This document shows positions 4,987 through 60,715 of a stretch of 64,000 nucleotides of DNA, one piece after another. Position 1 is the stretch's first letter, and each line of letters starts with the position of its first letter. Source of the DNA: Psammoneis japonica (taxonomy: Eukaryota); contig QPGO01000025.1 of NCBI GenBank assembly GCA_008632985.1, forward strand, positions 1 to 64,000. The letters are read 5' to 3'. The notes below the pieces were generated by a model that had not been told where the DNA came from, did no database searches, and worked only from the letters and a program-made list of their open reading frames with translations. Position numbers and translations under genes: made by a program.

Positions 4987-5049
4987 TCTTCAACCTCGGT
5001 TTAGTCCAACTAGTCAAATGATACGAGGCTTTCTGGGCGTTCTCCGCCC

Positions 5050-28254: not shown

Positions 28255-29729
28255 ATGAAAGTAACCATGTCGAAGCCTCTTCTCATGTACCAGTTAGGAA
28301 CCAACAATTGGCAGCGCGAAGGCGAGTTCGCTCCTGGCTCGGGCATTCTTCACCAAGCTCATCACGGCGCATTCAACGAGATGGAAGGTGTCACGTGCTA
28401 TTCCATGTACCCAAGTCAGAAACAAACCCCTCACGAGGATCCGCTCGTGGAAGTCTTCAAGTTGACCCACCCCATTCCAATCTGTGAATCGGCGTCGCCC
28501 GTCAGCAGCTATCGCTGGCACTCCATGTCGGACGAGGAGTTTGAGGCATACAAGAAACGTCTAGAAGACGCTGTTTATAAGCAAATGGCCGAGGCCGAGG
28601 CCCGTGAAGGAACAACCTTTTCCGTTGCGGTAGCCCACCACACGTTTCTGAACCCTATCGTTCTTCGAAGTGTTCTTAGGAGACGTCATGCGGAGGGCAA
28701 GCCGAAATGTGCTCTTGTCTGCTTTGTCCATGGGACAGGTAAGTGATGATGGGGTCGGGATTCGATTGCTATGAAGCACGTTTATCCATGCGTTGTTGTG
28801 TACTGACATATATATTCTATCTTTCTGCTATAGCTCTCAAAATGTACGTTCACGAGCGCGATCAAGACATTCCTGGAGAGTTCCCGAGTCGCTTCTGGCC
28901 CATGCTCAAGGAATCCAAAGTCTTTGACGACGTGAACGGCGACGGTGTACAGCTGTGCTATGCCATTTCCAAGCAACAAGTGGACGCCTTTAGCGAAATC
29001 TTCCCTTCGTTTCCCCGAGATAACATCAGAATATCGCCGAATGGCATTGACCAAAACGTATTTCACCCGATTGAGGGTGCAACGATTGAGAGCGTCCTTT
29101 CCAAGTTTTCAACCGTTCACTACGAAGGGAGCCCCCGCACGGCTACGCCCATTGGCACGAGTGCCATTAAGCACATTGTGATTATCGTGTCCAAGTTTGC
29201 CGACTGGAAGCGCATTCCTGCGCTCTTGTACGCCGCCTCGTCGTTTGAAAAGGCGCTGCCCGGCACGGCTCTTGTGATTGTGGGAACCGGTCCTCATGAC
29301 GCGCAAAAGAAGCTTCAGGATCTTGCCTATGAAACGCTTGGATTGAAGCAGTGCTACTTCTTGGGACCTCAACCCCAGACGGTGCTTGCAGAGCTCTACA
29401 CAATTGCGTCTGTAGGTGTCTTTCCGAGTTACAAGGAACCCTTTGGGCTGGTCTTTGTCGAGTGCATGAGTACGGGGACACCCGTCATTGGAGCTCGTTC
29501 GGGTGGACCAAAGGACTTTGTCACGGAGGACGTTGGTCATCTTGTTGTGGAAACGGATGATCTTGAGGAGCTTGGAAGGAGGCTCGATGAGCAAGTGCAA
29601 GCCGCCATCAAGGACGATTGGAAAGCGTCTCGCGGCGAAGCTTGCAAGAAGCTTGTAGCTGATCGCTTTAGTGTCATGAAGCAGTGCAAGGAGCTACTGG
29701 ATTTCACGAGGGAGCATCTTGATATTTAG
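28255..29729 (+). CDS. GT4 (group 1) glycosyltransferase; intron 28739-28833
   Basis: VHGT, ISPNGID and FPSYKEPFGLVFVECMSTGTPVI motifs; GTAAGT..TAG intron in frame. Confidence 0.9.
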
Positions 29730-29802
29730 ATTTGATATTTACACTTTTTAGATTACCATGTTTGAAAACTCTTGAATACAACGAACAATACAACATACGC
29801 AA

Positions 29803-30630
29803 CTACATTTCGACACGATCGTCTTCCAACTCTCTTTTTTCGCCCTTGCGCACCGCGTGTCCAGCTGTCGAGAGTCCCAGGTTTGCCAGTAGCTCTCGCA
29901 ACAACGCAGCCCCCTTGATCTCGGCCAACTCGCTTCCGATCGTCTTTTGGAGACGTTGCGGCGAATCATTATCCTGCATTTGAATCATCACTTCTGCGAG
30001 AGTGAATGAGCCAAGGAGCCTGCCTTGGCTGGATACATCTGTCAAAGTGTTCTCTCTCCTACGAATATGCCCAGTTGCAAGGGCATGTAGAGCTTCCGTA
30101 ATGAAGCGTCTTTCTTCATAAAGAGCAAAGTGTCTCAGCTCTGACATGTTTAGGTCAGGTGTCTCGGGGGGCGGAAGATTCATGCCAGCGACGAGTGTGG
30201 CATGGATGGCGGAGCATATCGTCAAGAACTTGTCTTGGTCGTATTTTTCAACCAGTCCTTCATTTTCGTCCACGCAGACGGATGCACATTTTATCCCCTG
30301 ATCGGTATCCGCTGGTTGCCATCCAGCAGATAGCACGATCTTACCCTCCCGATCTTTGTCATCAAGATATGACAAGTGCCGAATGGGATCCTTATTCATG
30401 TTGATCTTCGATCTCTCATGATGAGTGACCCATGAGCCGTCATCCCATGCCGTGTACTCGTGTGAGTCAATCTTCTCGTCACAAACCGGACAATTTGGTG
30501 CAAAGAGGCGATTTTTGCTCACAATTGCATCAATTGTGCAACGAGGGCAAAGACAATGTCCGCACGGTATCAAATGAACCACGTCATGCTTGCCTCGTAA
30601 GAGAGGCCTCTGACATTCTTCACACTTCAT
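29803..30630 (-). CDS. RING-finger-containing hypothetical protein
   Basis: CEEC..PCGHCLCPRC..CPVC. Confidence 0.7.
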   Translation of the reverse strand: MKCEECQRPLLRGKHDVVHLIPCGHCLCPRCTIDAIVSKNRLFAPNCPVCDEKIDSHEYTAWDDGSWVTHHERSKINMNKDPIRHLSYLDDKDREGKIVLSAGWQPADTDQGIKCASVCVDENEGLVEKYDQDKFLTICSAIHATLVAGMNLPPPETPDLNMSELRHFALYEERRFITEALHALATGHIRRRENTLTDVSSQGRLLGSFTLAEVMIQMQDNDSPQRLQKTIGSELAEIKGAALLRELLANLGLSTAGHAVRKGEKRELEDDRVEM

Positions 30631-30804
30631 CCCTGTTGTCCTTTTGGGCTATGATAAGTTCTTTGGCGTGTCACCTGTCGCGGTGAGAAAAACTTCAAAC
30701 GAAAACTTGAACCGAGAAAAATGTGAGAAGCCGACTTACCGAAACTATCCATTCCCGAATAATAAGATTCAATTTTCGAAATTTCGGAAGCGGCTATCGG
30801 TGGT

Positions 30805-31442
30805 TGGTGATTGCAGACTTTTTCGTGTCGGTCGGGCATGCAGTCGGGGGGTCGGGCAGTCGGTCCGTCCGAATTTCAGAGTGTGTCCCTCGGATGTCGG
30901 AACGGTGTGTGTTGTTTAGTGCAAATGGATTATTGGATTTGCAGAATGATCATTGAGGACGTTAGAGGTCATGGGGAGACATCCCAAACAATCGACAAAT
31001 TCCCTGCGATGGGTGCGTGGAACTGTTTTTCAGGAGAGCTCGAAAGTGCTGCAAAATTGGGATTGCCGGCGTGCCACATTGACGAATTCATCAAGCTTTG
31101 AATGAAGACAATCATTGACCCCTCAGTGGTCAGTGATTGCAGACTTTTTTGTGTCGGGCAGTCGGGGGGTCGGGCAGTTGGGCAGTCGGGTTGTCCACCC
31201 GCTTTTGAAAGTGTGCCCCTCAGATTTTGGAGAACGGCGTGGGTTGTTTGGTGCAAATGATGTGCTCGGATTTGTGGAACAATCATTGAGGACATCAGAG
31301 GTTGTGGGGACATCCTAAAAATCAGCAAATTCCCTGCGACGGGTGTGTGGCATGGTTTTTCAGGAGAGCTCGAAAGTGCTGTAAAATTGGGGTTGCCAGC
31401 GTGGCATGTTGAAAAATGTGCCCAGCTTTGAACAAAGACAAT
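30805..31442. repeat. Diverged tandem duplication, unit about 320 bp (30805-31112 and 31133-31442)
   Basis: Shared blocks such as gtgattgcagacttttt and tttttcaggagagctcgaaagtgctg. Confidence 0.85.
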
Positions 31443-31464
31443 GTGTCGTGAATTCTACATGAAA

Positions 31465-32470
31465 TGGTCATGTTGGAAAAGATGTGTCAAGCAGTGAGTG
31501 TGTTTGTGCGATGTGCTGTTTTGGCAACAAATTGGAAAAAAGGAGTGTCTGCGCACTTCGCTGCAGCCCCAAAAATGGCATGAGCCATCAAGTGCAATGG
31601 TCATCTGTGTCACCGGTGCGGTGGCCACGCCACTGCTGTGCTCCAGAGTCTACACTGCCGCCATGCATGCAGGGCCCTGCGGCCTCAGCAGCACAGCAGG
31701 GCTCTGTGCATGCAGCACAGGCAATGTGCATGCAATGGCACACACCCACAGCCACAAAGAAACACACGCAAGTGGTCAATGCTCCCCGCAGGCCTGGTTT
31801 GTTGTGAACTGCACACAAAACAGTCACATTGTTGGAAAACACATGTCGAGCAATGAGTGTGTTTGTGCGATGTGCCATTTTGGTGACAAACTGGAAAAAA
31901 AGAGTGTCCGTGCACCTCCCTGCGGCCCTGAAAATGGCGTGAGCCATCAAACACAATGGTCATCTGCATCTCCGGTGTGGTGGCCATGCGCAGCATTGGC
32001 AACACATCATGCAACGGCACACACCCACAAAGAAAGACAAGCAAGTGTTCAATGCTCCCCGCAGGCCTGGTTCTTGTTTGTCCACTGCAGCAATGTTCAC
32101 AAGCTAGACAAGGACCAAACCAATGCAGGCTTGCACTCTCCCAAGAAAACCCAGGCTGGATGGCAAGGGCCAGAGGGCGGGAGAGGTGGGAGCATCAAAG
32201 ACCATCCATTTCGACTTGCTGTTGTTGTCTCAAAAGAACAAGCAAGCTTCATTGAACGGGTGGCTCACATGTTGCTGTGCGTTCAATGGAGTTGGGAATC
32301 TTGCTTGGTGCATTGCTTGAGGCCAGCAGCTGTTGCTGATTTTCTTGTTTGTCCACTGTGCAGCGACATTCACAAGCTGGACAAGGACCAAACCAATGCA
32401 GGAGTGGAGAGGGCTTTGCTGGCACAGGCTTGCACTCTCCCAAGAAAACCCAGAGGCTGGATGGCAAGGG
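31465..32470. repeat. Hypermutated tandemly duplicated repeat units; 32190-32340 is related to 39590-39690 and 39940-39995
   Basis: gagtgtgtttgtgcgatgtgc twice; gacaaggaccaaaccaatgcagg twice; gacttgctgttgttgtctc at 32212 and 39612. Confidence 0.8.
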
Positions 32471-35132
32471 CCTCCAACTCCTCCAAAGGAGGTGCAAGTG
32501 AATTTGGGAGGGAGAGGTGGGACTGGCTGGTGGGCTGTGGCACTCAAGGCACGCAAGGGGTTGCGGGGACATGGTTTTCAGGGAGAAGTACAAAGTTCCC
32601 ACCGGCTGACATGCATTGTGAGAAATTGCGCATGACAGGCTCTGCTTGCATGTGGAGGTGTTGAAGCATTTCATCAGAGCGCCAGCAGCCCAAGAGTCAG
32701 ACAATGTCAGTGTTCACTTGGCACACAGCAACCCCATGGCACCGGTGGCACAAAGGCAGTGCACAGAGACATCTGATGGGTTCAAACTGAGGTTCTGGGG
32801 GCCAAAGACAGTGACGGCAGTGCAGAGGATGGCCGCAATGTCAGCTGGGCTGACAAGGTGCCATGCTCCATCATGAAAGTGTGTGGAGAGGGGGGTGTCC
32901 GGGAGCATGCTGTGGGCGTGCAAATGTAACACTCGACGTGTTGCTGCTTTAACTGGGCAAAGCTGGGGGTGGCCAGAAAGGTCTGGGCTGATGACTTCAC
33001 CGTGCACACCGTTCTTTTGGTTGGTGAATGTGAGGGTGGTGAAGGTGGTGGCTGCAAGCTGTGTGGCTTGTGCTTGGCGCAGATCAAGGCACAAACCACT
33101 GGCGGAGAGAAGGATGTTGACAAGGCAGAAAGGGGTGGTGTTTGAGGGCGTGGCGGTGTGTTTGCCAGGGCACAAAAGGAAGAAAAAGGCCAGAGCAATC
33201 ATGTCAGTGATTGCTTGGGTGCCTGGGTGTTGGCCAAGGGCAGCAGCGGAAAGAATCCAGCACAGGACAGCGACTCTGTCTGGCAGAGGATCTTGCTTCT
33301 TGCAGCAACGGATTTGTTGGGCAAGTTGGAAATCCAAACCGCCTTGTGGTGTGAGGCGCGGGTCCGGGGACCCCATTGCAGCAAACGTTTGGCCAATGGA
33401 CTGCAGGGCATCTTCAGCAATGTGTCAACAGACGGGATTGCCATGTGGTGTGAGGATGCTGATGCGGTGTCAGTGGAGGTAGACCTGGATGCAGAGGATG
33501 GGATTGATGGCCACAGTGTCGCAGAAGTCGGTCCATTTTTCCCAATGGGCGTTGGCGGCAGAGGCACATGAAGTGGTGATGGTGAGAGTGACTGCTTGTT
33601 GTGCAGCACAGAGATCATGAAGGAACGCAGTTGGGTGGCAGGGTCCACAAGTGCCGAGGTTTGCTCTGAGGATGACAAGAGTTAAAGTGGTGCAAAAACT
33701 CAGTGTCAGTGAGGGATTGCAAGCATGAGGCATCATCATCAGCGGTGTTCTTGAGAGGGCCCGGCAGGCAGTCATGTGGGGTGAGGTGCCAGTGGAAACA
33801 TTGGCGGCAAACTTGGGGACACAAAAGGGGGGCACGGACTTTGGTGGCAGTTGAGGAACCTTTGCATTGCCAAAACATGGTGTGAAAGCTGTTGGTCCAT
33901 TGGAGGTGGGTGCGTTCCCACATGTCAAAGCATTTGGAGGCTGCACGTGTTTGCAGCATGATTGGTGTTGGTCATGGAGCAGGTGGGATGTTTGCAGGTG
34001 ATGAGATCAGATGTGACGGCTTTGGGGAAGGGCATTTGCCATGATGTTGGACCTGTTGATGTTTGACAGTGTGCATGTGCCAAAGGACTGAACTTGAGTT
34101 TAGTTGCCCATGGCACGGCATCTGCGCTGGTGGGCAGGAGCACTCCTCCTGCTCCATGCCTGGCGGCATCATGGCATCCATGCACAGTGGGTTCAAGTGG
34201 GGCTGGTTCTTGGATGTGAGCTGGATGATGTTTGACAGTGGCACAGAGGTCTCTGAAGTCATCCATGATTGTGTGGAAGGTGGGTGTGAGACTCACACAG
34301 GAGTCAGGTGTGGCGCAGTGCAGCAGCTCTTGGAGTTCCGAAAACAAGCCACGCGATCCGGGGATTGCTGTTGACAGTGAGCTCACTGAGAAGGTGGTGG
34401 CAGTTGGAAGCGGTTGCTTGATGATCACGCTGGCAGGGGAAGTCCTGATGCAGTGCAGTGTGGAGTCATGCAAGGCAACGGTCGGTGAGGCGCAGTGTCA
34501 TGGCATGGGTGTTGATGAGCCAGCCCAGCACCTCTTTTTGTGTTGACCAAGTTGTGTTGCCTTTGCACAATTTCTTTGCTGAGATGGGTTCTTGACATTG
34601 TTTGGTGTCATTGGCATCAAGCAGTCAAAATGTGTTGTTGAGGGCTGTCATGATGGTTTGCAGAACATTGAGCCGGGAGCACTGTGTTCCTTGTGAGGCA
34701 CCAATGCAGTCATCTGCACACATGTCAACACATTGTAGACATCGGCAGCATGTGTGATGCAGGTGTGGGTCCAGCGTGGCTGGCAAGGGCATGGCCAGTG
34801 TTGAATCTCTGAGTGGTGCAGTGCGCAATGGCAGGCAACGGCTGTTTGCCACCTGTTCCAGGCGGTGGGGCAGTGCCTGAAAGTTGTGCTGCTGGAGTCA
34901 GTTGGCCAAGTTGGTGCCAGTCTTGGCTGCAACACAAAATGCTGGTGGCGAGTTTTTTCCAGCCCATGGGCAGCCTGGCTGGCATTGCTGCTGAGGGTGG
35001 TCCACCAGGCAGCAATGGAAATGCAACAGCCAATGTTGGTGCTCGGTCCAGTGCAACGGAGAGATGACAAAAACCATCGGACATGTCCTTCTTGAGCAAG
35101 CAGATGCGTCCTTTGGATGGGTCAGTCAAAAG

Positions 35133-35577
35133 TGCAACACACAGCTGCTGACAAGAGTTGATGCATCACGGCGACGTGTTGCAGCCTTTAAATGTCACAA
35201 AGGGCGTGACAAAATGACCTTTTGTCTGCATGCATGCTGCATTGTGAATTCACAGCGGAGTGGTTCATCGCAACCATTGGGCAGGAGGCCAGGGGTTCGA
35301 AACCCTGAGTGGGAGTTGTCTGCAGCAACGTTGATCACTGTCGAACGCGTAAAACTCTGTGCAGTTCTGCGTGTTCCTTCGTGCGCACCCACACTGTTCC
35401 GCCAAAACCGTGCAGTGTCAGCACACGTCAGTAAAGAGCCGCATGGACGCGCGATGCATGGGGAGGAGTGCAATGTGCAGCTGCCAATGAGAGTTGATGC
35501 ATCACGGCGACGTGTTGCAGCCTTCAAATGTCACAAAGGGCGTGACAAAATAACCTTTTGTCTGTGTGCATGCTGCA
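35133..35577 (+). mobile_element. Miniature LTR element (TRIM-like): 109-bp LTRs 35133-35241 and 35469-35577, AAAG target duplication, internal tRNA-type A/B boxes
   Basis: TG..CA termini; purine tract GGGGAGGAG before the 3' LTR; removal restores the RT frame LLRCALLTDPSKG. Confidence 0.9.
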
Positions 35578-35971
35578 AAAGGGCACACCGCAAGAGGCGA
35601 TCAAGCACACGTCCAAACTGCATGGCTTTGACTGGGACGTTGGGTTGGGTGGTGTCATTGGCGCCAAAGCAGGTGTGGCCAACAATGGGGCGTGGGTGCT
35701 GACTGCATTGTGGGGCCACACCGATGGGGCCAATGCGCAAGCCTGGTTGATTTTTGACTTCATTGCATGGAACGACAACCCAAAAACCCTTGTCCATGCA
35801 GCCAGCCATGTCTTCTTGTAAGAAATTGATGCACCTGCAGGCGGACTTGTGTGGACCCCTGGCGATGCTGGCGTTGAGTTCCCTCAGCACTCCAGGGTGC
35901 ATTTGCAATGGTGACTGGGATGTCTCGATGCTTGTGGTGGTGAAGCACCTGGCATGCCGGGTGTTTCTTAA

Positions 35972-36573
35972 GGTGGCACGAGACAAAAATTGTGAAAATC
36001 GTTTCTGCGCACATTTTCATTGAAAATCACGGGAAAATCAGGAATCCGTCGTCACACAAAAGCATTGTGTCTCATTGGCAAACCACATGGGTCGGCATGC
36101 GTGTGATTGCGAGTGTGTCACTCAACGGAAATTCCGTTCGGCGATTGCTCATTGTTCATCGCCTCTTTCTCTGCTGTCTCGGAAGGGCCATGAAAGGCAC
36201 TTCCAAGATGAAAACACTTGTGAATTTAAGCATGCAGACACTTTCTACACTGTCTTGGCTTCCTGCCGAGTGAAAGAAAATGCACCTTTTGACACTTTTT
36301 TCCACTCAAATGTCCAATTCAAAAACTCAGGGCAAAAAAACAGGACCTTTTTTTTGCTGACAGGAACATCTCATTGACACAATCTCGAAACTTGCAGTTT
36401 CTTTCCATGGGCAAGTCAAGGAGACACCAGTTGAGGATGCAGGACACTTGGTTGAAGGAAACGCAACATTTGACAGCGTCCTGGGAGAAGCCGAAGTGTG
36501 ACCATCGCTTTGTGTAGAAACGTGCAGAAATCACACCAGAAAAAATTCCAAACAATTTTCATCTCGCACCACC
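35972..36573. mobile_element. Non-autonomous TIR element with TTAA target site and GG..CC ends (Kolobok-like)
   Basis: TIRs of about 22 bp; flanks TTAA (35968-35971) and TCAA (36574-36577); removal restores the frame PMSCIKKHPA. Confidence 0.8.
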
Positions 36574-39230
36574 TCAATGCAGCTCATTGGCCCCAAATCA
36601 CCTTGGCCGCAATGTAGATGCAACAAATGGTTGAGGCCATGTCGACATGATCTGGTGGCATCATGTGCAATCTGCTTGCCCAACTCATCAGTGTTTGCTG
36701 ATGCAGCAATTGCCTGTCCACATTGTCGCTTCGTGGTGCGGTGCTGTTGCTGGCCAAACCTTTCCGCCTGCAGTGGTGGTGGCACAATGGGCTCTTGGTT
36801 CACAGTCCCTGAACTAGAGCCATTGCCAACAACCTGTTTGGTTGTCCAGCACACGTTCGCCCATTCAAACAGATTGTCTTGCTCTTCCTGTGTGTGGCCA
36901 TGATGGTGGTCCACATGGGGCTGCCACAATTGGAGTTGCGTTGGCCCTTTAGATGGCAGGGCAAGCACCGTGAGTTGCCTGGGGCGTTGACAGGCAGGGC
37001 GATGTTGTTGCGTGCACATCGTTGCTTGACGTCCCGTGATTGTGCGTTCGGTCGAGCATGCAGTTCATCAAAGCATGTGTTGCACTGGAGGTTGCGCGCC
37101 AAGCTGTTGTCTCTGGGTGTTCCAGTGGCAGGTGCTGGTGCCGGTGCCTCGCCCAATGTCAAAGTTTGGGGTGGGCGCTGACACAGGTGCAGATGGGGCC
37201 AAGTGCACTGTGTGGGGCAAATTGCAGCCCCAGCACATGGATGGAACCTTTAGTGGCCTCGTGCACTGCTGAGCGGGCTGTTGAATGGCACCTTTTGATC
37301 ACTGCATTCCTGTTGGTGGAACCAGCAAAGAAGTTTGATTTGGGTGCACCATTGAAAATCCACTGTCAGTGAGGGGTGACAAAGCAGTTGCACAGCCAGG
37401 TTGCTGGCGCAAACATTGACATCCCATTGGAGGTCCCCAAGGTGGCACATTGTTGGATGCTGTGCTCTGAGCAGTGCTGACAGCAAGACTTGCAATCCAT
37501 CCAATTGATGTTGGGTGGCTTGGATTGTCATCACAACCTTGGTGTCATCTGGCACCTCCAACACCATGGTGTCAGCCAAGAAAGGTGCTCCATCTCCGCT
37601 GTGCATTTGTTGGTGCAGCACATTGCAATGGTCAATTTGGGCAGCTTGCTGTGGCATGGTGAGTCCAAACATGAAAGGACCAAGTCCTTGAGACAGCTCA
37701 TCTTGATCATGCCCGGCAAAGGTGAGCCACACAAGCTTGGTGACGAGATTGACAGTGACTGGTGCTTCAGTGTAAACACCTTGAGCTTGGTGCTGCTTGT
37801 CTGCAGTGTTTTGTGCCATTGCAATGTGCCCGGTTTTCAGTGCGGTGGCCAATCATGTCCACATCGGTGGCAGTTGTTGTTCCTGGTGCACTTGGCAGAC
37901 ACACATTGACTTTGGCACTCCATGTGCACCATGGAATTGCTGCTGCAGGACCTTCCCCCTTTCACTTGCTTGCTGCCTGGCGACAGTGTCTAAACGCTGC
38001 TGGCATTGCTTGGCATTGAGGTTGTCAATGGCATTGATGATGGGCTGCCACTGTTGCGTGATTGGATGACCTTGTCCAGTGCAGTTTGGGAAGTCCCTTT
38101 GCACCTTGCGTTCAAAGCATTGGACCAGCAAGGCATTCTGTGGTTGGGGCGGACTTGGCCAATTCTGCAGCATGGTGGATGCATGGGCATCTTGTTGTTG
38201 CGCAGCCATTGCTGCTGCCTTTAAGAAGTCCAACAGTGGACGGCACTCATCAACTTGATTGGCTGCTGTGGCCGCTCCATGGATTGCCGCAAAAGCTTGC
38301 TTGGGTCCAATGGCGTTTGCAACAATGGGCTCACACAAGCAAATGGCACGTGCATGGACATGCGTGTGCAAACCTTGACAGCAATGGGGGTCTGAGCTGT
38401 GACGGCCGGATGTGGCCCTTCCGGTGTGGCAGTGATTGCTGCCAGCATGGCATCGTCAGTCAATGCGTGCACACCATTTGGTGCTGAGTTTATCAGCAGA
38501 TCCAGAAACTCTGCGATTTGGCACTGGTTGCATGCTGGGTCTCCAACGACTCCACAAACGCAGCCATCCCCCCCATGGTTGTGGCTGTCCCACTGCTGCA
38601 GCAGGACAGGTGGAGATCCAGTGTGACACTTGCATGTGTCTGGTGTGGTTGGATGGTCCTGGCACTCAGCAGTGCATGACAACAGGCATGAGAACATCAT
38701 GCTCAGAGGCTGCTGTGTGCTGTCAAACAAAGCTGCCAGGTTGCATTGGGATTGACCGTTTGCGATGGCAGCAAAGTCCAACATGGCTTCTGCACAGCTG
38801 CGATGATGCAGATCTAAATCGGCAGTTGCACAAAAATCAGCACAGGTGTGCAGGATGCATGGCGGCTGGTGGTTTCCTGGAGGCAGCACTTGTCCAGCGG
38901 CGCCCGCCTGAGGCGGCGGTGCCAGCTGCACTTGTGGTTGAGCGGCTGCTCCTTGTTGCACTGCTGGCGGTCCTTGTGGGGCGCTTGCAGCACGGCGGCA
39001 CTTGCGGTTGTGGCGCACCTGTTGTGCCAGCGGTGCTGGGTGTGCAGGTGGTGGGGGCGCAACACCTTGTGCCGGTGATTGTGCCCCTTGTTGGGGCGGT
39101 TGATCCGCTCCTTGGTTTGACACATTGAAGTGTTGTTCTCATGCGAGTGGACAACAGCGGCGGAGGTGTCGACGCGTTCCAGACGTAGGTGGGAATCCGT
39201 GTGACATTGGGCCCGTAGACTTCTACGTGC

Positions 39231-39548
39231 GAGCTCCGTAGTAAAATTATACGGTAATTAATTAAAATGTCAATGATCGCCAACAGAAAATGAGGCAATT
39301 TTGCGAACGCACAAACTCGCCCATGATTGAAGTACATCATTTTTTACTTAGCCAGTTACATTCTTCAGACATTGAAGAATGTAACTGGCGCATTATTTTT
39401 TCTATAAATTCGTTATATAAAACGTCTGGGGCTTCGCAAAACAGCGAGTCTGGACAATTTTTTTTAAATATCACACGTAGAAAGCTACGTGCGAAACATA
39501 CGACGGATGATAAAAATTATTTGTGTCACACGTCAGTACTACGAGCTC
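39231..39548. mobile_element. Possible AT-rich MITE-like insertion, not hypermutated
   Basis: Ends gagctccgtagta and tactacgagctc are inverted repeats; interior is TpA-rich. Confidence 0.45.
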
Positions 39549-39799
39549 CCACCTAGGGCTGGAACGCGTCTGTCCTGCGTCAAACCAAGGGCATCAAAGA
39601 CTGTCCATTTAGACTTGCTGTTGTTGTCTCGAAAGAACAAGCGAGCTTCGTCGGATGGGTGGCTCATGCATTGCTGTGCATCAATGGCAATCTTTCGTGC
39701 CATGCAGTCATTGTAAAAAGACATGTAGAAATTGTGCAGATCAGTGCCAAGAGCAAACAATCATTTGTCTGTCCATCCACCCTCAGTGAATTTTAATTC

Positions 39800-41691: not shown

Positions 41692-42883
41692 TATGTCTCT
41701 TATTCTACCAAATCCAATCCAATTCATATGATTGTGTCCTCAAGGACAAAAATTGATCATCATCCTTATCATCTTGTTGCGACTTTGCCAATACGTCCAC
41801 CCTCGTGGGAGGGAAAATGGAATTCTGGAATCCTTTTCTGTGATTAATTAATAAATTTATGATCAGGCCCTTCTGCCGACCTGGCTGGATGTCATTGTTT
41901 CACTTAAAATTTTGGGGCCACTTCGAGTTAACAGGTCAAGACTCAAAGACTTCTACGCACTTGTAGTTATCAGGCTGCCTGCCTCTTCTCACTTTTGCCA
42001 TTGCTTTTCAATATATTAAATAATGTCAGAACGGAATATGTACACTAAAGTTTAGGAATGCACTGTTAGTGACAGCACATCCGCCGTTAAGCTTTGACAT
42101 GCATTATTTGATTTGCAGCAGAAAGTGAGCGTTCCAGCTCTCGGTGGGAGAATCCGCATTCTAGTCTCCTATTTCTCCTTTTCTGAGGCCTCCGAGTCAA
42201 GTTCAGTTTCGCTGCTCTTGGCCTGCACTCCAGCAGCTATGTTAGAAGCAAGGGCCGGGCTTCTTGTTCAGGAAAGCGAATGGTTCAATGTTCTCAAAGC
42301 TGTGACCATTTCGACCACTGCCTCAGCATTCAGGATGGACTTCCCTTCATGGATACACTGCCGATTGAAGACAGCGACCTCAAACGCTACCCCATTGTCA
42401 ATTTGACCAGCCCCTGAGGCTGTGTTCCCCAGTGCGTTGATGACGAGCGCACCATTGAAGATCTCCTCCGTGATTCACCGCCTGCCAATGATTGCGTGCA
42501 GACCATGTGGGATTCTTGGGTTTTGCTCCTTGTGCTTCCATCACTGAACGAGTTGCTTCCCAGTTTCATGTCATGATTGAGCGCGTTGAAGATCAATTGG
42601 ATCACACCACCCTCCATTGCCAGAATGGCTTGCTTGATGATCATGCTCCATGGTTTTTCCTCCAGCTTCTCCATCTCCAGCTTTCTGCACCGGCGACCAA
42701 TGTGTGGTTCAGCAACTCAGTTCCTTCACCCCCGTCCCTCTTGTCCAGGGTTAGAAGTCAAAGCAAGATCTCAACTTCTTGGATCAGGTTCATCCCATGG
42801 TTGGTTTTATCCCCGAGGAATGGGTCAAGTCCACCTTCAAGCATGCTGTCCAACTTGGGCACCTCCATCACAACACTGCTTTC

Positions 42884-43914
42884 TGGGATGGGCAAGTTGT
42901 GATGGGGTCAGGATTTGATTGCTGTGAAGCATGAAAGTCCAAGCATTGTTGTGAACTGGGATTTGATTGCATTGTTGTGAACCAATGGACATGACACTCT
43001 GTTGTTCTGAAACAGCTCTCAAGATGTGCGTTCACGAGTGTGAGTGAAGACATCCCCCAAGAGTTCCCGAGTTGCTTCTGGCCCATGCTCAAGGAATCCA
43101 AAGTCTTTGATGATGTGAGTGGCAATGGTGTGCAGCTGTGCCATGCCATTTCCAAGCAACAAGTGGATGCTTTTGGCAAAATCTTCCCTTGTTTCCCTGT
43201 GATGACATCAGAACAATTTGCCGAATGGCGTTGACCAAAACAAATTGAGGGTGCAACAATTGAGAGTGTCCTTTCCCAAGTTTTAATGGTTCGCCACAAA
43301 GGGAGCCTCAAAAATGGCTGCTCCCATTGACACAAGTGCCGTTGAGCTCAAATTTTGGTTGTTGTGTCCAAGTTTGCTGTCTGGAAAAGGTGCATCCCTG
43401 CACTGTGGTGGACCACCTTGTTGTTTGGAAAGGAGCTGCCTGGCATGGCTCTTGTGATTGGGGGAGCCAGTCCCCATGATGCACAAAAGAAGCTTCAGGA
43501 CCTTGCACATGAGGCATTGAAAACCAAAGCAGCACCACTTCTTGGGACCTCAACCCAGGACGGTGCTTGCAGAGCTCTGCACAATTGCATCTGCAGGTGT
43601 CTTTCTGAGTCACAAGGAACCCTTTGGGCTGGTCTTTGTCAAGTGCATGAGCGCAGGGACCCCCGTCATTGGAGCTTGCTCAGGTGGGCCAAAGGACTCA
43701 GTCACGGGGGGATGTCAACTGTCTTGTTGAGGAAATGGATGATCCTGAGGAGCTTGGAAGGAGGCTCAACAAGCAAGTGCAATCTGCCATCAAGGATGAT
43801 GGGAAAGTGGTGTCTCATGGCGAAGCTTGCAAGAAGCTTGCAGCCAATCTCTTCAGTGTCATGAAGCAGCACACAGAGCTGCTGAATTTTGTGAGGGAGC
43901 ATCTTGACATTTAG
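42884..43914 (+). pseudogene. Hypermutated copy of the GT4 glycosyltransferase intron and exon 2
   Basis: Colinear with 28731-29729; frameshifts; Tyr to Cys/His changes (ELYT to ELCT, PSYKE to LSHKE). Confidence 0.95.
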
Positions 43915-43984
43915 ATTTGACACAAACACTTTTTAGACCACCATGTTTCCAGTGCTCTTGAGTGCAAATGAACAAAACAACATG

Positions 43985-44844
43985 TGCAACTGCATCCCGA
44001 CATCCTCTTCTTCCAACTCTCTCTTCTCACCCTTGCGTGCCATGCTCCCAGCAGTTGAGAGTCCCAGGTTTGCCAGAATCTCTTGCGACAACACAGCACC
44101 CTTAATCTTAGACAACTTGCTTCCAATGGTTTTTGGAGATGTTGTGGCAAACAAGTGTCCTGAACTCAAATCGTCACCTCTGCGAGAGTGAAGGAGCCAA
44201 GGAGCATCCCTTGGCTTGTGACACATCTGTCGCAGCACTCTCTCTCCTGTGAGTGTGCCCAGTTGCAAGTGCATGCAGAGCTTTTGCAATGAAGCACCCA
44301 TCTTCATAAAGAGCAAAGTGTCTCAGCTCTGACACGTTTGGGTCTGGTGGTGTGGGGGGTGGGCGGATGAATCACACCGGCAATGAGTGCAGCGTGGGTG
44401 GTGGTGGAGCATGTCACCAACAACTTGTCTTGGTCACATGTTTCAACTGGTCCTTCAGTTTTGTCCGTGTAGATGGTTGAACACTTTCTTTTGGCATGAT
44501 TGGTGTCTGCTGGTTGCCATCCAGCAGATGGTGGCAAGATTTTGCCCTCCCAGCCAATCTTTGTCAACAAGGTGTGACAAGTGCCGAGTGGGATCCTTTT
44601 TCACATTGATCTTTGATCTCTTGTGATGAGCAACCCAAGAGCCTTCATCCCATTCTGTGCATTTGTGTGACAACTCAATCTTCTCATCACAAACCGGACT
44701 GTTTGGTGCAAAGAATCGATTTTTGTTTGCATTTGCACCAGCAGCAGTTGTGCAACGAGGACAAAGACAATGTCCACAAGGTGTCAAATGAACCACGTCA
44801 TGTTTGCCTTGTAAGAGAGGCCTCTGACATTCTTCACACTTCAT
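43985..44844 (-). pseudogene. Hypermutated copy of the RING-finger gene at 29803-30630
   Basis: MKCEECQRPLLQGKHDVVHL matches the intact gene; frameshifted; HEYT to HKCT. Confidence 0.95.
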
Positions 44845-45111
44845 TCCGGTTGTTCTTTTGGGTCATGATAAGTTCTCTGGATTGTCACCATGTCGCGGTA
44901 AAGAAAAACTTCAAACAAAAACTTTGAACCGAACAGGATTTAATTTTCGAAATTTTGGAAGTTTGTGCTGTACGCCGACCGTTTTTGCACGGATTTCCCG
45001 GCACAAAAAATGAAGGGAGCGAGATGCCGCGATGGCATTCCGAGTTCCTTGGCGAACACAGCGTCGATCATTTGCAGGCTACGCTCCCAACTCAGAAAAG
45101 AAGTAGCAACA

Positions 45112-46272
45112 ATGGCAGTTTCATCTCAGCAGCACGTGTACCCGTCATGTGAACTATATGATCTGGTTATAGACATGGATTGGGATGCGGTGACGATACA
45201 TGCCAAGAAACACCCGGTAGATGCGCAATGGGAAGACCACGATGGGCGCGATGGAGGCGAAACGCCACTCTATCTTGCTTCTCAGTACGGCGCTCCTCTT
45301 GAAGTCATCCAAGCCATCATTTCAGCATATCCACAAGCACTGAGAGTACAAAACAGAAATGGCAATTCTCCTTTGCATATCGCATGTCACTACGACGTGA
45401 ATGTCGAGATTATCAGAGCCTTGGTGGAGGCGGATCCTGGCACGGTGTTTCTCGGAACAAAATGGGGGAAAACGCCCATGAATGCCCTTTACGATGGAAT
45501 ATTGAAACGAGCTGATCGCACTGATATCTCAACAATTGAAGACGGGCAATGGGAAAAGATCATGGTTTTGTTGAGAGCTGTTGCCATGGAAGAGAGTCTC
45601 GTCTCTTTGGATGGGGAAATGCTGTATGTGCATGCTGCAGTATCGCTAGGAGGATTTGGCTGTCCGCGCCGGGTATTTGAACTTGTCGTCGATCGCTTTC
45701 CGGAACAAGTATTCAAGAGAGATGTTCTAGGACGCCTGCCTATTCACCTTGCAGCTGGGCCCATTCGGAAGATTCGATTTCGACATTTTGTTCGTCGCAA
45801 CAACTCAACACGCGAACAGCATGTGTTTGCAAGACTGCTTAAAGAATACCCACAATCTGCACAAGTTGTTGATCCTCAAGGGCGTTGGCCTCTGCACATT
45901 GCTCTCGGCAATGGTCGCACCTGGGAAGGAGGCGTGGAAATGCTGTTTCAGGCTGCGCCACGCGCAATTTCTGTGGTTGATCCAGTCACTGGTCTATTCC
46001 CGTTCATGCTTACAGCTCAAGAGAAGAAGTCCGATCTAGACACTGTGTTTCTTCTGTTACTGTCTCAGCCTGACGTTTTGAACTCTTGCCGACCAGTCAA
46101 AGAATCGAAAACGAAAGATCTTATTACGATGCTAAGCTTTGAAGACTTGCATGACAAGTGGCATTGTGCAGTCACCAGAACCATGCCACACCGGCGCATT
46201 TCTAATGCAGCTTGCGTTGCTATATGCTCCATTTGTGTAGGAATTCTAATGACATCGAGACGATCGAGATAG
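45112..46272 (+). CDS. Ankyrin-repeat protein
   Basis: GETPLYLA, GNSPLHIAC, GRLPIHLA and GRWPLHIA repeats; FPFML tail motif. Confidence 0.85.
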   Translation: MAVSSQQHVYPSCELYDLVIDMDWDAVTIHAKKHPVDAQWEDHDGRDGGETPLYLASQYGAPLEVIQAIISAYPQALRVQNRNGNSPLHIACHYDVNVEIIRALVEADPGTVFLGTKWGKTPMNALYDGILKRADRTDISTIEDGQWEKIMVLLRAVAMEESLVSLDGEMLYVHAAVSLGGFGCPRRVFELVVDRFPEQVFKRDVLGRLPIHLAAGPIRKIRFRHFVRRNNSTREQHVFARLLKEYPQSAQVVDPQGRWPLHIALGNGRTWEGGVEMLFQAAPRAISVVDPVTGLFPFMLTAQEKKSDLDTVFLLLLSQPDVLNSCRPVKESKTKDLITMLSFEDLHDKWHCAVTRTMPHRRISNAACVAICSICVGILMTSRRSR

Positions 46273-56789: not shown

Positions 56790-59700
56790 CGATGGTGACC
56801 AAAAATTTGGCAATCTGCAGCAAGTTCAGCCCCGTCCACCCCAGCCATTTTTTGACTCTCATCCATCGTGTGCACAACAGGGGCCAGCTGGCAGCAGCAG
56901 CCATGCTCTGTGTGTTTTGCACACCCCATGCTTGCTGGGAGACACCTCAGAGGTGGCTCCGCTTTTGCGCTCCTCTTCTTCCTCCACGAGCTCCCCCAAG
57001 CCCAGAGGGGCAGAGTTTGGCCCGCGCTGCTGTGTTTCTTGAAAGTCTCTTTTCCTTTTCTTCGCTGGGTGCTGCTCTGCTTTGCACTGCATTTTTGGCC
57101 ATCAAGGCAGCCAGAGAGCTTTTTTCATTCCTCCTTCTCTTTCAAAACTTGTTTTTTGTGCCACCGCCAGCTGCCACTCTTTTTGTGGCGGAGCCCAAAG
57201 TGCCTGCCTGCTGCAAAGGGTGGCAAGGAGAGCAAGAAGAAAGTGATGCAGCCAGCCTGTCTGCGCTCTTTTTGTCAGCTGGCAATTTTTCAATGCAGCC
57301 AAGAAGGGACAAGAGAGCCACATCCATGCTGAGAGCAGAAAAGCGGGGCAGAGCCATGTCAGCAGCACGAGAGAAAGCGGGAAAACAAGCACAAAAGAGA
57401 GGCGAGAGAGAAATGAAGTCTCGAGAGGAAGGAGCCGCAGATGAAGGTGGGCAAAGAGGGTGTCAGAAGATGGCTTTTTACCCATTCCACCCTTCCACCA
57501 AGGTCCTCACTTGTGCTGTGTGGCAAGCCGCTCTTTTTGTCACCAACTTCCCCCCTGCAGATGCCAGCACGGCCTGCAGGTGCTGCAACAGTCACTCAGT
57601 CTGATGAGGAGTCCATGAACCGCGTGGGAACATTCTGTGTGCTGCCACACGCGATGCTGCGTGGCCACTTTGGTGGTCCATCATTGAAACACTGGGCCCC
57701 CTCAGTGGTCTGTGCCACTCTGGCTGACAAGTTTGTCCAGACCCCGCCGGTCTTCTTTCCACCCCCCCCCAAAATGCCCTGCCAATGTTGGCGTTCAACT
57801 CATCCCCAGTTCCACACCACCAGAAGCCCCATCCACCCACCAATTTTTGGCCATTGACATCAATGTGCCGACAGCTCTGGCTCCCGCGCCTCCTGTGCAC
57901 CTGGCTTGCCTGCCCCTGAAAAGAACCTGTTGAACAAGGCTCACCTCAGCAGTGCATGGGACAAGCTCCTTAGCTGAGCCTGACAAAATTAAGGCAAGTG
58001 GCAAGAATTCAAACAATGACTCCTTGCTGCTGTCTAAATGGCAGATGAGTCTCCACTCAGAGACCGTCACAGGAGCCGAAAGACGTGCAAGTCGGTGTGA
58101 TGGGCTGCTGTCATCGTTCTTGTGAGCCTTGTGGCTCGAAAGCAAACCACATCATGCGCGAACGCGCGGAACTGAAGCACACAAAACTGTGCACGGCAAA
58201 CTAAACAGCACGCGACATTTCACGCGCACCTGAGTCCTGCTCAAATCCTGTCACTCCCCAGTTTGCTTGAGGAGTCACAGAAACAGATTCGACTTCGGAT
58301 GGAATGAAGTTCCAAAACATGAGGGGATGGAGAAGGTTCCAGATTTGGGAGCAACCCCAATGCTTGCTGAGAATGTCAGCAGGGTTGCGGGAGCCTTCGA
58401 TGAAGTGGAGCTCAAGGCAGCCAGAGGCAATCGCCTCGCGCACACGATGGAATGAGAGAGCGGTGTGTCGCTTGTGCAACTTGGAGTGCAGGATGGTGGC
58501 ACTGTCCACAACTGACTTGTTGTCACCGAACATGCAACTGATGTCACGGATCGGGATGCCGAGGTGACACAGGGTGATGCGCAGGTCAACAATCTGCTCA
58601 ACACAAGTCCTTGCGGCAACAAATTCAGACACCCGCAGGTCGCAGTCTCCACGGTGGCTTGCTTCTTAGAGAACCAATCAGCCGGGCATTTGTTGAGGAA
58701 GTGGAGCATTCCCATGACAGAGCATCCGGTGAGCATGCAATGGTGCAAGTTTGCATTGACGCAGTGGGTGGCAGTGACGAACTTGCCAAGGGGCGGTGGA
58801 GCGTCCTTCGGGATCATCTCTTCTGCTTCGCCGCACACAGAGTGCATCCACTCACAGGCCGGAGCAGGGAGATCCGAATGGTCGGGCTCTTCTGTGCGAA
58901 CGCGGAGAGCGCCGTGTCGCATCTTGGAGAGGTGCCCACAGATGCATTTGGCACGATCCAAGTGGCCTTGACGGGGCGCAGCTCGGAAGCCAGACAGTGA
59001 CATGACGGCCGTGGCAATGTCAATTCGACTGAGAGACACTGCCCATTGGAGGGAGCCAACAAGAGACTGGAGCTGTTGAATGCCATCGGGTTCCAGCAGT
59101 TTGGAAGTGTCCAGTTCGGGGTGGTCACCCTTTTCCAGAGGGGACAGGACGTTGGTGGCAGGTTTCTCCCCAAACAGTCATGTGCAGCTGTCGACCATGC
59201 GTTCGATGCACTTGCGCGGAGACAGACACAAGGTGCCGTCAGGATCCTGGGAGAAGTCGCAGCCTGGGTGGAACTCAATCGGTCCCGCACCCTTGAGCTT
59301 GAACTTGTGCTTCTCCATGAGAGCATCAACGAAAGGCTGAGGATCCTTCATGGCAATGGCGAGGTCATCCACATGAACGGCAACACATTCACAGTGGTCG
59401 CCATTCCTGTGCACCCAAATGTCGGGTTCGGAGCGGCAGGGGAAGAAACCTTCAGCTCGCAGGCAGTCGGCGAAGCACTCGTGCCAGTGGAGGCCGGAGC
59501 TGCGCAGTCCACATGGGGCCTTGTAGATGACAAGAATGTGGCCTTCGAGTTTGCCAAATTCGGGTCCGCGTCATCTGCGCGCCATTCCAACGTTGTTGAT
59601 GCCATCAATCAAGCAGGGCTGCTCCTCTTGCCTCTCCTTTTCACCTTCGACCACCTGGGCAGTGTTGGGGGCACCACTTCCACATCTTCTTCTTTGGCAT

Positions 59701-60410: not shown

Positions 60411-60715
60411 ATGCATTCTATGACATCTTACGAACGGACAAAGTTCGATCTACAGCATCGCTGAATGGCACATTTTTGGCGAACGCGCGCATTGTTAGTG
60501 CGACGAATCCGGGTTATTTTTATCATTTACGAGCTCTATAACACAAATAAAATCGACCGCTAAATTCCGTACCCTCGGCCCATCTTTCTTCTCTCCATCA
60601 CTTCTAACACTGTAACTAAAAACTAAAACAACAAGTCACAAGTCTCATCTCTCAGCTCCTCTGTGCGTAGGCATCGATTTCCTACGACTTCAGTGTCTCG
60701 AGGTAGATTCTAAAA

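Follow-up and report, generated by a model that had tools for sequence, protein, structure and literature searches.

Probable locus-directed hypermutation at TpA and CpG of a dead, derived copy of a duplicated host gene pair

The DNA analysed here, a stretch of 64,000 nucleotides referred to as the window, contains two copies of a host gene pair lying ~14 kb apart, one of which (copy A) is intact, whereas the other (copy B) is a pseudogene pair from which nearly all TpA and most CpG dinucleotides have been removed. There is very little doubt that copy B records a hypermutation that is domain-restricted, context-specific, derived and other than RIP. The fuller reading, that silent DNA is subject to a locus-directed hypermutation with two parts, is considered likely, and the enzyme and targeting signal suggested below stand at about even chances of being right. 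So far, the one other protist for which region-targeted TpA mutation appears to be known is Bigelowiella natans, through a preprint of 2026 (Mettrop et al., bioRxiv 2026, 10.64898/2026.01.13.699255). The two copies constitute a natural before-and-after experiment, from which the spectrum of a eukaryotic hypermutation can be read at base resolution and with its polarity. The destruction of one host gene copy with its partner spared distinguishes the process from pairing-based RIP, and such one-sided destruction bears on the survival of gene duplicates.

The Duplicated Gene Pair

Copy A (28731-30790), the intact source segment, covers parts of two convergent genes: gene 1 contributes its intron 1 and exon 2, and gene 2, which lies across a 73-bp spacer, is accompanied by ~140 bp of its upstream sequence. 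Gene 1 encodes a GT4-type glycosyltransferase on the plus strand and consists of exon 1 (28267-28736), which is found only at A and is absent from the B duplicate, a 95-bp GT..AG intron (28737-28831) and exon 2 (28832-29729), which carries a Glycos_transf_1 domain (Pfam PF00534, 1.4e-26). The model join(28267..28736, 28832..29729) yields 455 aa with a single terminal stop, its exon junction between FVHGT and ALKMYVHE agrees with the homolog P0002, and a 1274-base contig of run X2 that joins 28736 to 28832, skipping the 95 bases, represents spliced gene 1 at A. Homologs of gene 1 are numerous (n = 916), the closest being 75-83% identical and the closest with a taxon label being thraustochytrids (60-62%). 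From these two taxon-labelled homologs the host, a marine protist, appears to be a labyrinthulomycete, and the gene homologs point away from a fungal host. Gene 2 (29803-30648, minus strand) is a putative gene, represented by an ORF of 281 aa whose N-terminus weakly resembles a RING domain (zf-C3HC4_3, E = 0.0033, below the Pfam cut-off); a search of proteins 154-492 aa long yielded no homologs for it at E <= 1e-3. The composition of copy A is ordinary (TpA rho 0.41-0.67, CpG rho 0.96-1.08), and its intron 1 and spacer are rich in TpA, the 95-bp intron alone holding ~9.

The colinearity of copy A with copy B (42889-44960), claimed in a preliminary description of this DNA, was borne out by self-blastn, in which A 28789-30715 matches B 42968-44932 at 79.8% identity over 1983 columns, and by global MAFFT alignment, in which the homology extends from approximately A 28731 / B 42884 to approximately A 30790 / B 44960. 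When gaps are left out the identity is 81.7%, with 268 transitions and 92 transversions, and there are 25 indel events. Copy B contains gene 1 without exon 1, followed by gene 2, and its frames are broken by 8 frameshifting indels relative to A in gene 1 exon 2 and by four more, together with one TGA, in gene 2. The change of the gene 1 splice donor from GGTAAGT in A to GGCAAGT in B (GT to GC), which had been reported previously, is likewise seen in the alignment. With exon 1 absent, twelve frameshifts and an altered donor, copy B is a pseudogene. Features of a processed (retro-)pseudogene are absent from it: intron 1, the spacer and both convergent genes are retained and neither end has poly(A).

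Copy B is unlikely to be an assembly artefact. In Logan contigs of run X1, the sole DNA run found and possibly the source sample of the assembled window, the depth over B is 59-66, as on the single-copy flanks. The X1 k-mer contigs match B along 3206 and 1250 bases without a single difference, and the left edge of B is bridged by the 3206-base contig (39898-43103); joints with sides of <31 letters were disregarded. Base modifications can cause systematic miscalls on some sequencing platforms, and an explanation of the pattern by modified bases miscalled in the islands, or by mis-assembly of B as a chimera, might draw on this and on the possible identity of X1 with the source sample. It is nevertheless scarcely credible, given the exact match of the contigs at flank-like depth and the 92 transversions and 25 indel events between A and B, which go beyond what miscalling yields. 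Contigs of run X2 gave no cover over 42082-44617, an observation that was kept apart from the evidence.

Mutational Signature of Copy B

Over the whole duplicate, copy B keeps only 5 of the 62 TpA and 19 of the 120 CpG sites of A, compared with 1309 of 1787 (73%) other dinucleotides (Fisher tests against the latter, p = 3e-26 for TpA and 1e-36 for CpG). The lost sites have become nearly exclusively TG or CA, which in the duplicate core account for 46 of 61 TpA (25 TG, 21 CA) and 85 of 118 CpG. Per strand, the A>G frequency is 0.41 at TpA versus 0.06-0.11 behind A, C or G, that is, 4-7 times that of other A sites, and C>T reaches 0.38 at CpG versus 0.05-0.08 ahead of A, C or T. Among the context-specific changes, A:T to G:C makes up about one third, and only 4 TpA have been gained in B (3 CA>TA, 1 TG>TA). 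Partial counts made previously hold up: all 5 TpA of A 28832-29031 are changed in B (4 to TG, 1 to CA), the CpG loss given there as about 11 of 15 comes to 12 of 15 on recounting, and in 29380-29520 none of the 4 TpA persists, one having turned into CG.

Loss of CpG varies little with the 5′ neighbour (0.29-0.42; ACG 27/68, CCG 13/45, GCG 20/54, TCG 30/71), which fits 5-methylcytosine decay. Both strands have been struck randomly, the observed strand runs of 25, 48, and 68 comparing with expected values of 24, 41, and 65, and run tests over B gave no clustering by strand. The commonest adjacent double changes are exchanges between TG and CA (18/82). The random runs and these doubles fit a long series of independent events and not one processive burst. 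A mild strand bias is present at CpG (CG>TG versus CG>CA 54:32, p = 0.02), and 17 of the 25 informative TpA have a pyrimidine 3′ of the mutated A, which is not significant (p = 0.11). The background divergence of the two copies is high (~5% transversions, 6-11% non-context transitions), and slow decay could take the place of "hyper"-mutation for part of the pattern.

The preference for A>G behind T is like the neighbour preference of ADAR, and the signature could in principle stem from A-to-I hyperediting of RNA by an ADAR-like enzyme with 5′-U preference, acting on dsRNA such as the convergent genes might produce, followed by reverse transcription and insertion beside a retroelement, a fragment of which adjoins B. 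This route is highly improbable: it leaves the CpG loss without cause, B retains intron and spacer and lacks poly(A) on both sides, and the signature is shared by the flanking retroelement fragment and by unrelated islands. ADARs, moreover, are known from animals only.

Polarity of the Changes

Polarity was determined from the non-synonymous codon differences of gene 1, gene 2 having given no homologs at E <= 1e-3. The best ortholog locus in a metagenome scan (L001) is just 66% identical (77% identity in tblastn with gene 1) and has neither gene 2 beside the ortholog nor an intron at the site of the gene 1 intron. Ten outgroup proteins favour A at 74 of the 81 differences and B at 5, with 2 ties. 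Tyrosine codons (TAY) of A that differ in B have without exception become CAY or TGY, once TGG, at positions occupied by Tyr or Phe in the outgroups. As the outgroups agree with A, B is the derived copy, and the TG/CA states, for which an ancestral origin had been named as the outcome that would overturn the preliminary description, are derived. None of the 5 amino-acid changes assigned to the A lineage is a TpA or CpG loss. The view that hypermutation has struck a single copy and left its partner intact stands, copy A having an ordinary composition and none of the signature; selection may have kept one copy, as was additionally suggested, but this is not needed, since A is without trace of the process.

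Depleted Islands and Their Boundaries

Segmentation of the window into two states (TA/CG versus TG/CA) indicated that the signature fills ~34% of its 64 kb. The depleted blocks have a TpA rho of 0.06 and a CpG rho of 0.36, against 0.80 and 0.92 in the non-coding DNA of normal segments (7.3 kb of introns and intergenic sequence), and the switch between the two states takes place within 100-200 bp. The largest island (30970-39156), which starts ~180 bp beyond the right end of copy A, has 30 TA, 247 CG and 1876 TG+CA in 8187 bp and a depth of mostly 61-94x, which is single-copy-like. Most of B and an adjoining mobile-element relic lie in an island (42281-44892) with 13 TA, 46 CG and 549 TG+CA in 2612 bp, and an island at 56793-60415, with 7 TA in 3623 bp, contains a truncated Copia-like element. 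Islands at 394-3466 (10 TA, 26 CG in 3073 bp), 4854-7314 (8 TA, 23 CG in 2461 bp) and 19656-20885 (3 TA, 19 CG in 1230 bp) gave no Pfam match. Were there an untargeted, genome-wide neutral bias against TpA and CpG, the islands might represent old unconstrained DNA at equilibrium, in keeping with the age of B and the lack of recognisable genes in the islands. However, the near-normal rho values of the introns and intergenic DNA just given, a CpG frequency across codon boundaries (third to first position) of 0.91 of expectation, the TpA retained in the 95-bp intron of A and the sharpness of the boundaries make such a bias very unlikely.

The island containing B begins ~600 bp to the left of the duplication, inside a Copia-like fragment, and ends ~70-100 bp inside the right edge of the duplication. 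In the right end of B (44860-44960) TpA and CpG are kept, with CpG at 44894, 44896, and 44948 and TpA at 44869; next to this end lies the start of an ankyrin-repeat gene (ORF 44944-46272) with Ank domains and an X2 contig at 45107-46309. The fragment that abuts B on the left (42281-42885, plus strand) is a Copia-like polyprotein relic corresponding to profile positions ~676-862. It was detected by tblastn with residues 679-736 of P0122 (E = 0.004) and by two colinear same-strand matches (12.7-12.9 and 4.2-4.9 bits) to a profile built from 40 polyproteins, for which 300 dinucleotide shuffles gave a maximum of 1.2 bits. On the minus strand of this region, a 68-aa ORF (42268-42474) gave one weak phmmer match among 1.84 billion representatives, the repeat protein P0121 (3e-6), and was rejected as a spurious frame, the plus strand being the one that carries the relic.

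A second Copia-like relic, encoding RT/RNase H (58297-59567, minus strand; polyprotein residues ~1426-1848; RVT_2, 2.9e-10), has P0122 as its closest homolog (E = 2.9e-140, 68% identity) and was matched by tblastn as well. In its predicted protein all 12 conserved Tyr are changed (8 Cys, 3 His, 1 Leu), as are 7 of 16 conserved Arg, and 17 of these 19 changes lead to Cys, His or Gln. Judged from these replacements, the relic is a second, independent substrate of the signature. By origin, then, two substrates are mobile (the Copia-like relics) and B is host-derived, in agreement with the earlier proposal that ordinary genes can be substrates; three large islands and two short segments were without match.

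Because the edges of the island (42281-44892) do not match those of the duplicate (42889-44960), targeting looks locus-based rather than pairing-based, as had been suggested before. The competing view is that a RIP-like, homology-triggered process struck both A/B and repeated transposons, and that lineages with a damaged A were purged by selection. B is indeed a duplicate of ~2 kb, and the remaining substrates to which an identity could be given derive from retroelements of a repeat family; a homology trigger thus retains a formal standing. Nonetheless, this view is quite unlikely, since A lacks the signature, including any TpA or CpG loss among its 5 lineage-specific changes, and has a TpA-rich intron and spacer; the island overshoots the homology by ~600 bp on the left and falls short of it on the right; and the chemistry is opposite, TpA being destroyed. 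A TIR element of ~400 bp, located amid depleted DNA in a very high-depth bin, is also still rich in TpA, although its small size or young age may disqualify it as evidence.

Proposed Mechanism

In the locus-directed reading, copy B would be an old, partial, dead duplicate of the host gene pair, probably truncated at birth because exon 1 of gene 1 and the promoter are missing, that became fused to a Copia-like fragment; the two would lie in a silent island with an active gene on either side. The island would then have been reworked by domain-restricted mutation with two context-specific parts, the first converting TpA to TpG/CpA by an A:T to G:C change of the A, whichever strand carries it, and the second converting CpG to TpG/CpA. 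The TpA part may be the work of an enzyme that deaminates adenine in DNA, as has been suggested for B. natans, and the CpG part may reflect deamination of 5-methylcytosine in methylated silent DNA. Targeting would be by locus, the trigger most likely being a chromatin state, typical of silent or foreign DNA, that relics of mobile elements would have seeded, and copy A, an expressed gene pair, would have been spared because such targeting ignores duplicate pairing.

In B. natans, the preprint describes de novo TpA to TpG/CpA hypermutation that is restricted to integrated viral DNA, occurs in some lines only, at ~1000 times the background rate, and comprises AT to GC changes in 230 of 231 events; a multi-copy target is unnecessary, and the candidate enzyme is ADAT2-like, DNA activity being reported for only a few ADAT2 enzymes (10.64898/2026.01.13.699255). 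The same source gives a TpA rho of 0.45 for an NCLDV region, describes the long-term trace as TpA depletion with more CpA and TpG, seen in clusters where reverse-transcriptase and transposase domains are overrepresented, and refers in its Discussion to A>G changes by ADAR with a preference for a 5′ T/U neighbour (10.64898/2026.01.13.699255). As there, TpA in the present window has gone to TpG or CpA on either strand (25 TG and 21 CA among 61 TpA), and the effect is confined to discrete regions, with rho at 0.80 in normal non-coding DNA and 0.06 in the islands. Unlike the rhizarian B. natans, however, the host here is apparently a labyrinthulomycete stramenopile, depletion is near saturation (0.06 versus 0.45), one substrate is a duplicated host gene pair in place of viral DNA, and the process is read from its sequence trace, not from de novo events. 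The strong loss of CpG (85 of 118 to TG/CA) also departs from the AT to GC spectrum and may be due to a second, separate process; being at least as large here as the TpA loss, it leaves room for the two organisms to possess two different systems. DNMT6 in Aplanochytrium indicates that some labyrinthulomycetes encode a C5 methyltransferase, which is as much as that source shows (PMC9998398). Titles and abstract openings in the literature yielded no tie of thraustochytrids or labyrinthulomycetes to TpA depletion or hypermutation. If the system is the same as in B. natans, TpA-directed DNA editing would be an old and widespread genome defence, and the thraustochytrid relatives are culturable.

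RIP is a fungal, premeiotic process, known from Neurospora and other ascomycetes and associated with a RID/DIM-2-type methyltransferase, that converts C:G to T:A mainly at CpA, with TpA rising, marks both partners of a duplication and leaves a tract that follows the duplicated segment. The present process is like RIP in that extra copies are inactivated by dense transitions with a dinucleotide signature, and in that transposon relics are struck and duplicated host genes destroyed. It is unlike RIP in that TpA is removed (57 of 62), A:T to G:C accounts for ~one third of the context-specific changes, only one partner is mutated, A being normal in composition and polarity, and the tract ignores the homology edges, its left 600 bp consisting of an unrelated Copia-like fragment. 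The earlier framing in terms of RIP does not survive these figures, with only 4 TpA gained.

Methylation-driven decay of CpG takes place in silenced repeats of vertebrates and plants, and TCG hypermutation is found in some basidiomycetes. Common to such decay and the present pattern are the conversion of CpG to TpG/CpA, its limitation to silent or repeated DNA and the elevation of C>T at CpG (0.38 versus 0.05-0.08 elsewhere) with no further preference; TpA is also struck here, however, and a 5′ preference of the TCG type is absent. Deaminases of the ADAR/ADAT2 type likewise cause A to be read as G and prefer a 5′ T/U, but act on RNA (ADAR) or tRNA (ADAT), whereas resident genomic DNA, intron and spacer among it, serves as substrate here.

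A bolder version, which is somewhat unlikely, would be a chromatin-directed DNA-editing defence in labyrinthulomycetes that deaminates A in TpA as well as C in CpG, perhaps through a single enzyme complex acting at these two self-complementary pyrimidine-purine steps. This would be the same ancient system as in Bigelowiella, hence widespread in SAR, and would turn any DNA in silent chromatin, be it transposons or stray gene duplicates, into a TG/CA-only "compost." If such a defence exists across labyrinthulomycetes or SAR, it would restrain the rise of new gene families, and much of the genome would go unseen by annotation that relies on homology.

Content and Annotation of the Islands

Identifiable content is absent from 5 of the 8 islands (3 of the 6 that exceed 1 kb), and the islands are nearly invisible to repeat and homology annotation. 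Among 99 ORFs of at least 90 aa from the depleted blocks, Pfam gave one real match, RVT_2, and a read-through six-frame Pfam scan of 56793-60416 likewise gave RVT_2 alone; none of the ORFs of at least 90 aa in the largest island (30970-39156) had a credible match. Four further Pfam matches in depleted blocks were set aside as chance (E >0.003, below their cut-offs). Searched by tblastn against the depleted blocks, 401 ORFs from normal segments gave just the match of A to B and short repeat matches near 31.1-32.4 kb, and Rfam and tRNA scans of the 64-kb window gave 0 matches. Long spurious ORFs crowd the islands because TpA loss deletes the stop codons TAA and TAG; between 30.8 and 39.6 kb there are 18 ORFs of at least 150 aa.

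Gene content and alignment of the two copies

The intact source segment (copy A, 28731..30790) carries a convergent pair consisting of gene 1, a Glycos_transf_1 glycosyltransferase gene of 455 aa on the forward strand (join(28267..28736, 28832..29729); Pfam 1.4e-26), and gene 2, a putative gene on the reverse strand (30648..29803) comprising a 281-aa ORF whose N-terminus is weakly RING-like. The exon junction of gene 1 agrees with the homologous protein P0002, and its intron is supported by a contig from sequencing run X2 that joins 28736 to 28832 over a 95-base GT..AG gap. This spliced contig was seen when X2, which is labelled 'DNA?', was compared with positions 28201-29569, and the run therefore probably holds transcript-derived sequence. 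The best named homologs of gene 1 are from Hondaea fermentalgiana (62%) and Mucochytrium quahogii (60%), from which we infer that the host is a labyrinthulomycete. Gene 2 is regarded as putative because a search of the 154-492-aa proteins in a database of 5.8 billion detected no homologs at E ≤ 1e-3; if it is a gene at all, it is apparently a lineage-specific orphan. The metagenomic locus holding the closest gene 1 ortholog (L001:1184-2536; 66-77% amino-acid identity, GC 41%) reads through without an intron corresponding to 28737-28831, has no gene 2 neighbor and is normal in TpA and CpG content across its whole 5.5 kb.

The colinearity previously described between copy A and the hypermutated duplicate some 14 kb away (copy B, 42889..44960) was borne out by self-blastn of the window, in which 28789-30715 versus 42968-44932 is the single long internal match (79.8% identity over 1983 columns), and by global MAFFT alignment, in which homology extends from approximately A 28731/B 42884 to A 30790/B 44960 and begins a few bases upstream of the splice donor of the intron. 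The aligned core (A 28738-30715) contains 1606 matches, 360 mismatches (268 transitions and 92 transversions) and 87 gap columns. Copy B is a pseudogene pair: its gene 1 has neither exon 1 nor a promoter, exon 2 has eight frameshifting indels, the donor is destroyed (GGTAAGT in A, GGCAAGT in B, as earlier reported), and its gene 2 carries four frameshifting indels and one TGA.

An assembly artefact, which the preliminary description had named as a refuting outcome for copy B, is ruled against by Logan contigs from sequencing run X1. These cover copy B at a depth of 59-66, equal to that of neighboring single-copy genes, and two of them (3206 and 1250 bases, the former spanning the left edge of B) show no differences from the window, although X1 may be the source sample of the window assembly and so provides an independent assembly rather than an independent sample.

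Polarity and signature of the mutations

The differences were polarized over exon 2 of gene 1, skipping codons gapped in B, by alignment with 10 of the 120 homologs listed (P0001-P0007 and P0009-P0011), namely the closest homologs and two named thraustochytrids, with P0008 and all remaining ones left out. The copies differ at 117 codons, 36 synonymously and 81 non-synonymously; at the latter, the outgroups side with A in 74 cases and with B in five, with two ties. In this exon, the TG and CA states of copy B are thus derived and not ancestral, contrary to the refuting outcome that the preliminary description had named. The five changes assigned to the A lineage include no loss of TpA or CpG. 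All differing Tyr codons are TAY in A and CAY or TGY (TGG once) in B, the outgroups having Tyr or Phe.

Local TpA and CpG counts made earlier agree essentially exactly with our recount, and the same pattern extends along the duplicate. In the core, only five of the 61 TpA of A are unchanged in B, with 25 converted to TG and 21 to CA, and 18 of the 118 CpG are unchanged, with 53 converted to TG and 32 to CA; every remaining dinucleotide is retained at 53-85%. Over the full duplicate, retention is 5/62 for TpA and 19/120 for CpG versus 1309/1787 for all other dinucleotides (Fisher p = 3e-26 and 1e-36, respectively). Per strand, A>G change amounts to 0.41 at TpA versus 0.06-0.11 elsewhere, and C>T change to 0.38 at CpG versus 0.05-0.08 elsewhere.

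TG and CA outcomes are randomly ordered along copy B (runs observed/expected: TpA 25/24, CpG 48/41, combined 68/65), and TG<->CA is the most frequent adjacent double change between the copies (18 of 82), as expected if a TG or CA drifting to TA or CG is soon re-resolved. Together with the level of transversions (∼5%), this points to many independent events across a long time, and not to a single processive event.

Depleted islands across the window

Two-state segmentation, with emission values chosen by eye from a 1-kb profile, placed TpA- and CpG-depleted islands at 394-3466, 4854-7314, 19656-20885, 30970-39156 (an 8-kb island), 42281-44892 (which holds most of copy B) and 56793-60415, along with three further short segments, in total 21,909 of 64,000 bases (34% of the window). 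In the 1-kb profile, block interiors have observed/expected ratios (rho) of 0.00-0.11 for TpA, 0.07-0.75 for CpG and ∼1.4-2.1 for TG/CA. The normal segments encode a kinesin, a short-chain dehydrogenase, a thioesterase, a THUMP protein, an LCIB-type carbonic anhydrase, ribosomal protein L3 and a UBC-RING protein. A genome-wide neutral bias was considered and rejected, since the non-coding DNA of these segments (7.3 kb outside ORFs of at least 100 aa) has a TpA rho of 0.80 and a CpG rho of 0.92, versus 0.06 and 0.36 in the islands; CpG at codon boundaries likewise stands at 0.91 of expectation. The mutational process is therefore confined to domains.

Because TAA and TAG are gone, long ORFs abound in each of the six reading frames of the islands, with 18 ORFs of at least 150 aa in 30.8-39.6 kb, and gene finders are likely to predict spurious genes there. 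No credible Pfam match was obtained for ORFs of at least 90 aa in 30800-39600, and among 99 island ORFs of at least 90 aa the only real match was RVT_2 at 59181-59570 on the reverse strand.

Part of the 8-kb island (33000-35000) has a strongly positive GC skew (0.25-0.34) and more TG than CA (e.g., 148 versus 98), which suggests that either the process or the original sequence is strand-asymmetric. The only X1 contig at 32928 (depth 50) differs from the window at an island TpA (tgtAaca to G), and an adjacent TG to CA pair is found in X1 at 34555-34556 (depth 34 of 119); these differences may reflect the same process at allelic or paralogous sequences and are too few to interpret.

Copia-like relics and island edges

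Read through one TGA, 58278-59570 matches 733 Copia-like polyproteins (best E = 2.9e-140, 68% identity), spanning only aa ∼1426-1848 of these ∼1860-aa proteins. Compared with 30 of these homologs, the relic deviates at 51 of the 215 columns whose conservation is at least 80%: none of the 12 conserved Tyr survives (eight Cys, three His, one Leu), and seven of 16 Arg are replaced (three Cys, two His, one Gln, one Thr), with no change at five Trp, nine His and 16 Pro. This unrelated, independently polarized substrate bears the same signature as copy B.

The left edge of the island containing copy B, at ∼42281, lies about 600 bp outside the duplication. A profile built from 40 of 72 full-length polyproteins matches this flank twice, colinearly and on the same strand, at 42286-42453 (profile positions 676-731; 12.7-12.9 bits) and ∼42783-42881 (positions ∼828-862; 4.2-4.9 bits). 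Both exceed the best score of 1.2 bits from 300 dinucleotide-preserving shuffles searched in six frames each, indicating that copy B is fused to a Copia-like element fragment. At the other end, the rightmost 70-100 bp of the duplicate, adjoining the start of an ankyrin-repeat gene, retain TpA and CpG, and the clean copy A lies only ∼180 bp from the 8-kb island. Island edges thus do not follow homology edges and lie close to active genes. This agrees with the earlier proposal of asymmetric targeting, with one copy hypermutated and the other clean.

Comparison with known systems

The repeat-induced point mutation (RIP) of ascomycetes, in terms of which the preliminary description had framed the duplicate, does not fit: the chemistry at TpA is opposite, one partner is spared and the mutated tract does not track the duplication. 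The sole known precedent for the TpA component is the process in Bigelowiella natans, where mutation accumulation reportedly yielded 231 events in two integrated viral regions, all but one of them (230) A-to-G or T-to-C changes at TpA, for which an ADAT2-like enzyme deaminating DNA adenine has been proposed (bioRxiv 10.64898/2026.01.13.699255). The TpA component is alike here, whereas the CpG decay is additional, and the present case belongs to another major lineage, has reached saturation and involves a host-derived duplicate besides retroelement relics. No publication linking the signature with labyrinthulomycetes was found, as judged by the titles and abstract openings listed.

A locus-directed process acting on silent DNA that is seeded by mobile elements best accounts for these features. 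The signature, its polarity and its confinement to domains are demonstrated here, whereas both an enzyme and a targeting signal are inferred. One component would change TpA as in B. natans; the other would be CpG loss by 5-methylcytosine decay, with which the lack of any 5′-neighbor preference in the A/B comparison is consistent. At least some labyrinthulomycetes are reported to have a C5 methyltransferase, namely DNMT6 in Aplanochytrium (PMC9998398). It is also conceivable that one machinery acts at both of these self-complementary pyrimidine-purine steps; however, CpG loss varies between islands (8-41 CpG per kb) whereas TpA loss does not (2-5 TpA per kb), which favors two processes of differing rates.

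Repeats in and beside the 8-kb island

A TpA-rich, MITE-like element of ∼400 bp (39171-39570), with 24-nt terminal inverted repeats that are 92% complementary, is flanked on both sides by depleted DNA. The bin containing most of it has a summed X1 k-mer depth of ∼64,000 versus ∼60 for single-copy DNA, and the element resembles a young insertion of very high copy number that hypermutation has so far not affected. Within the island, a short high-copy element at 35131-35577 (bin depth ∼46,000) has direct repeats (35131-35241 and 35467-35577; 89% identity) and a tRNA-like GGTTCGAAACC stretch near 35295, and a 226-base X2 contig spans 35248-35473. Many CpG persist in this element, which may have inserted later and may be SINE-like; ARAGORN detected no tRNA in it. 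A tandem pair, r1 (30797-31122) and r2 (31123-31443), with ∼78% identity, straddles the island edge. The inner copy, r2, is the more decayed, since 11 of 20 r1 CpG are TG or CA in r2 versus four of 12 in the reverse direction. Bin depth over 30797-31443 is 1000-2000, which suggests that the pair belongs to a family of repeats numbering a few tens.
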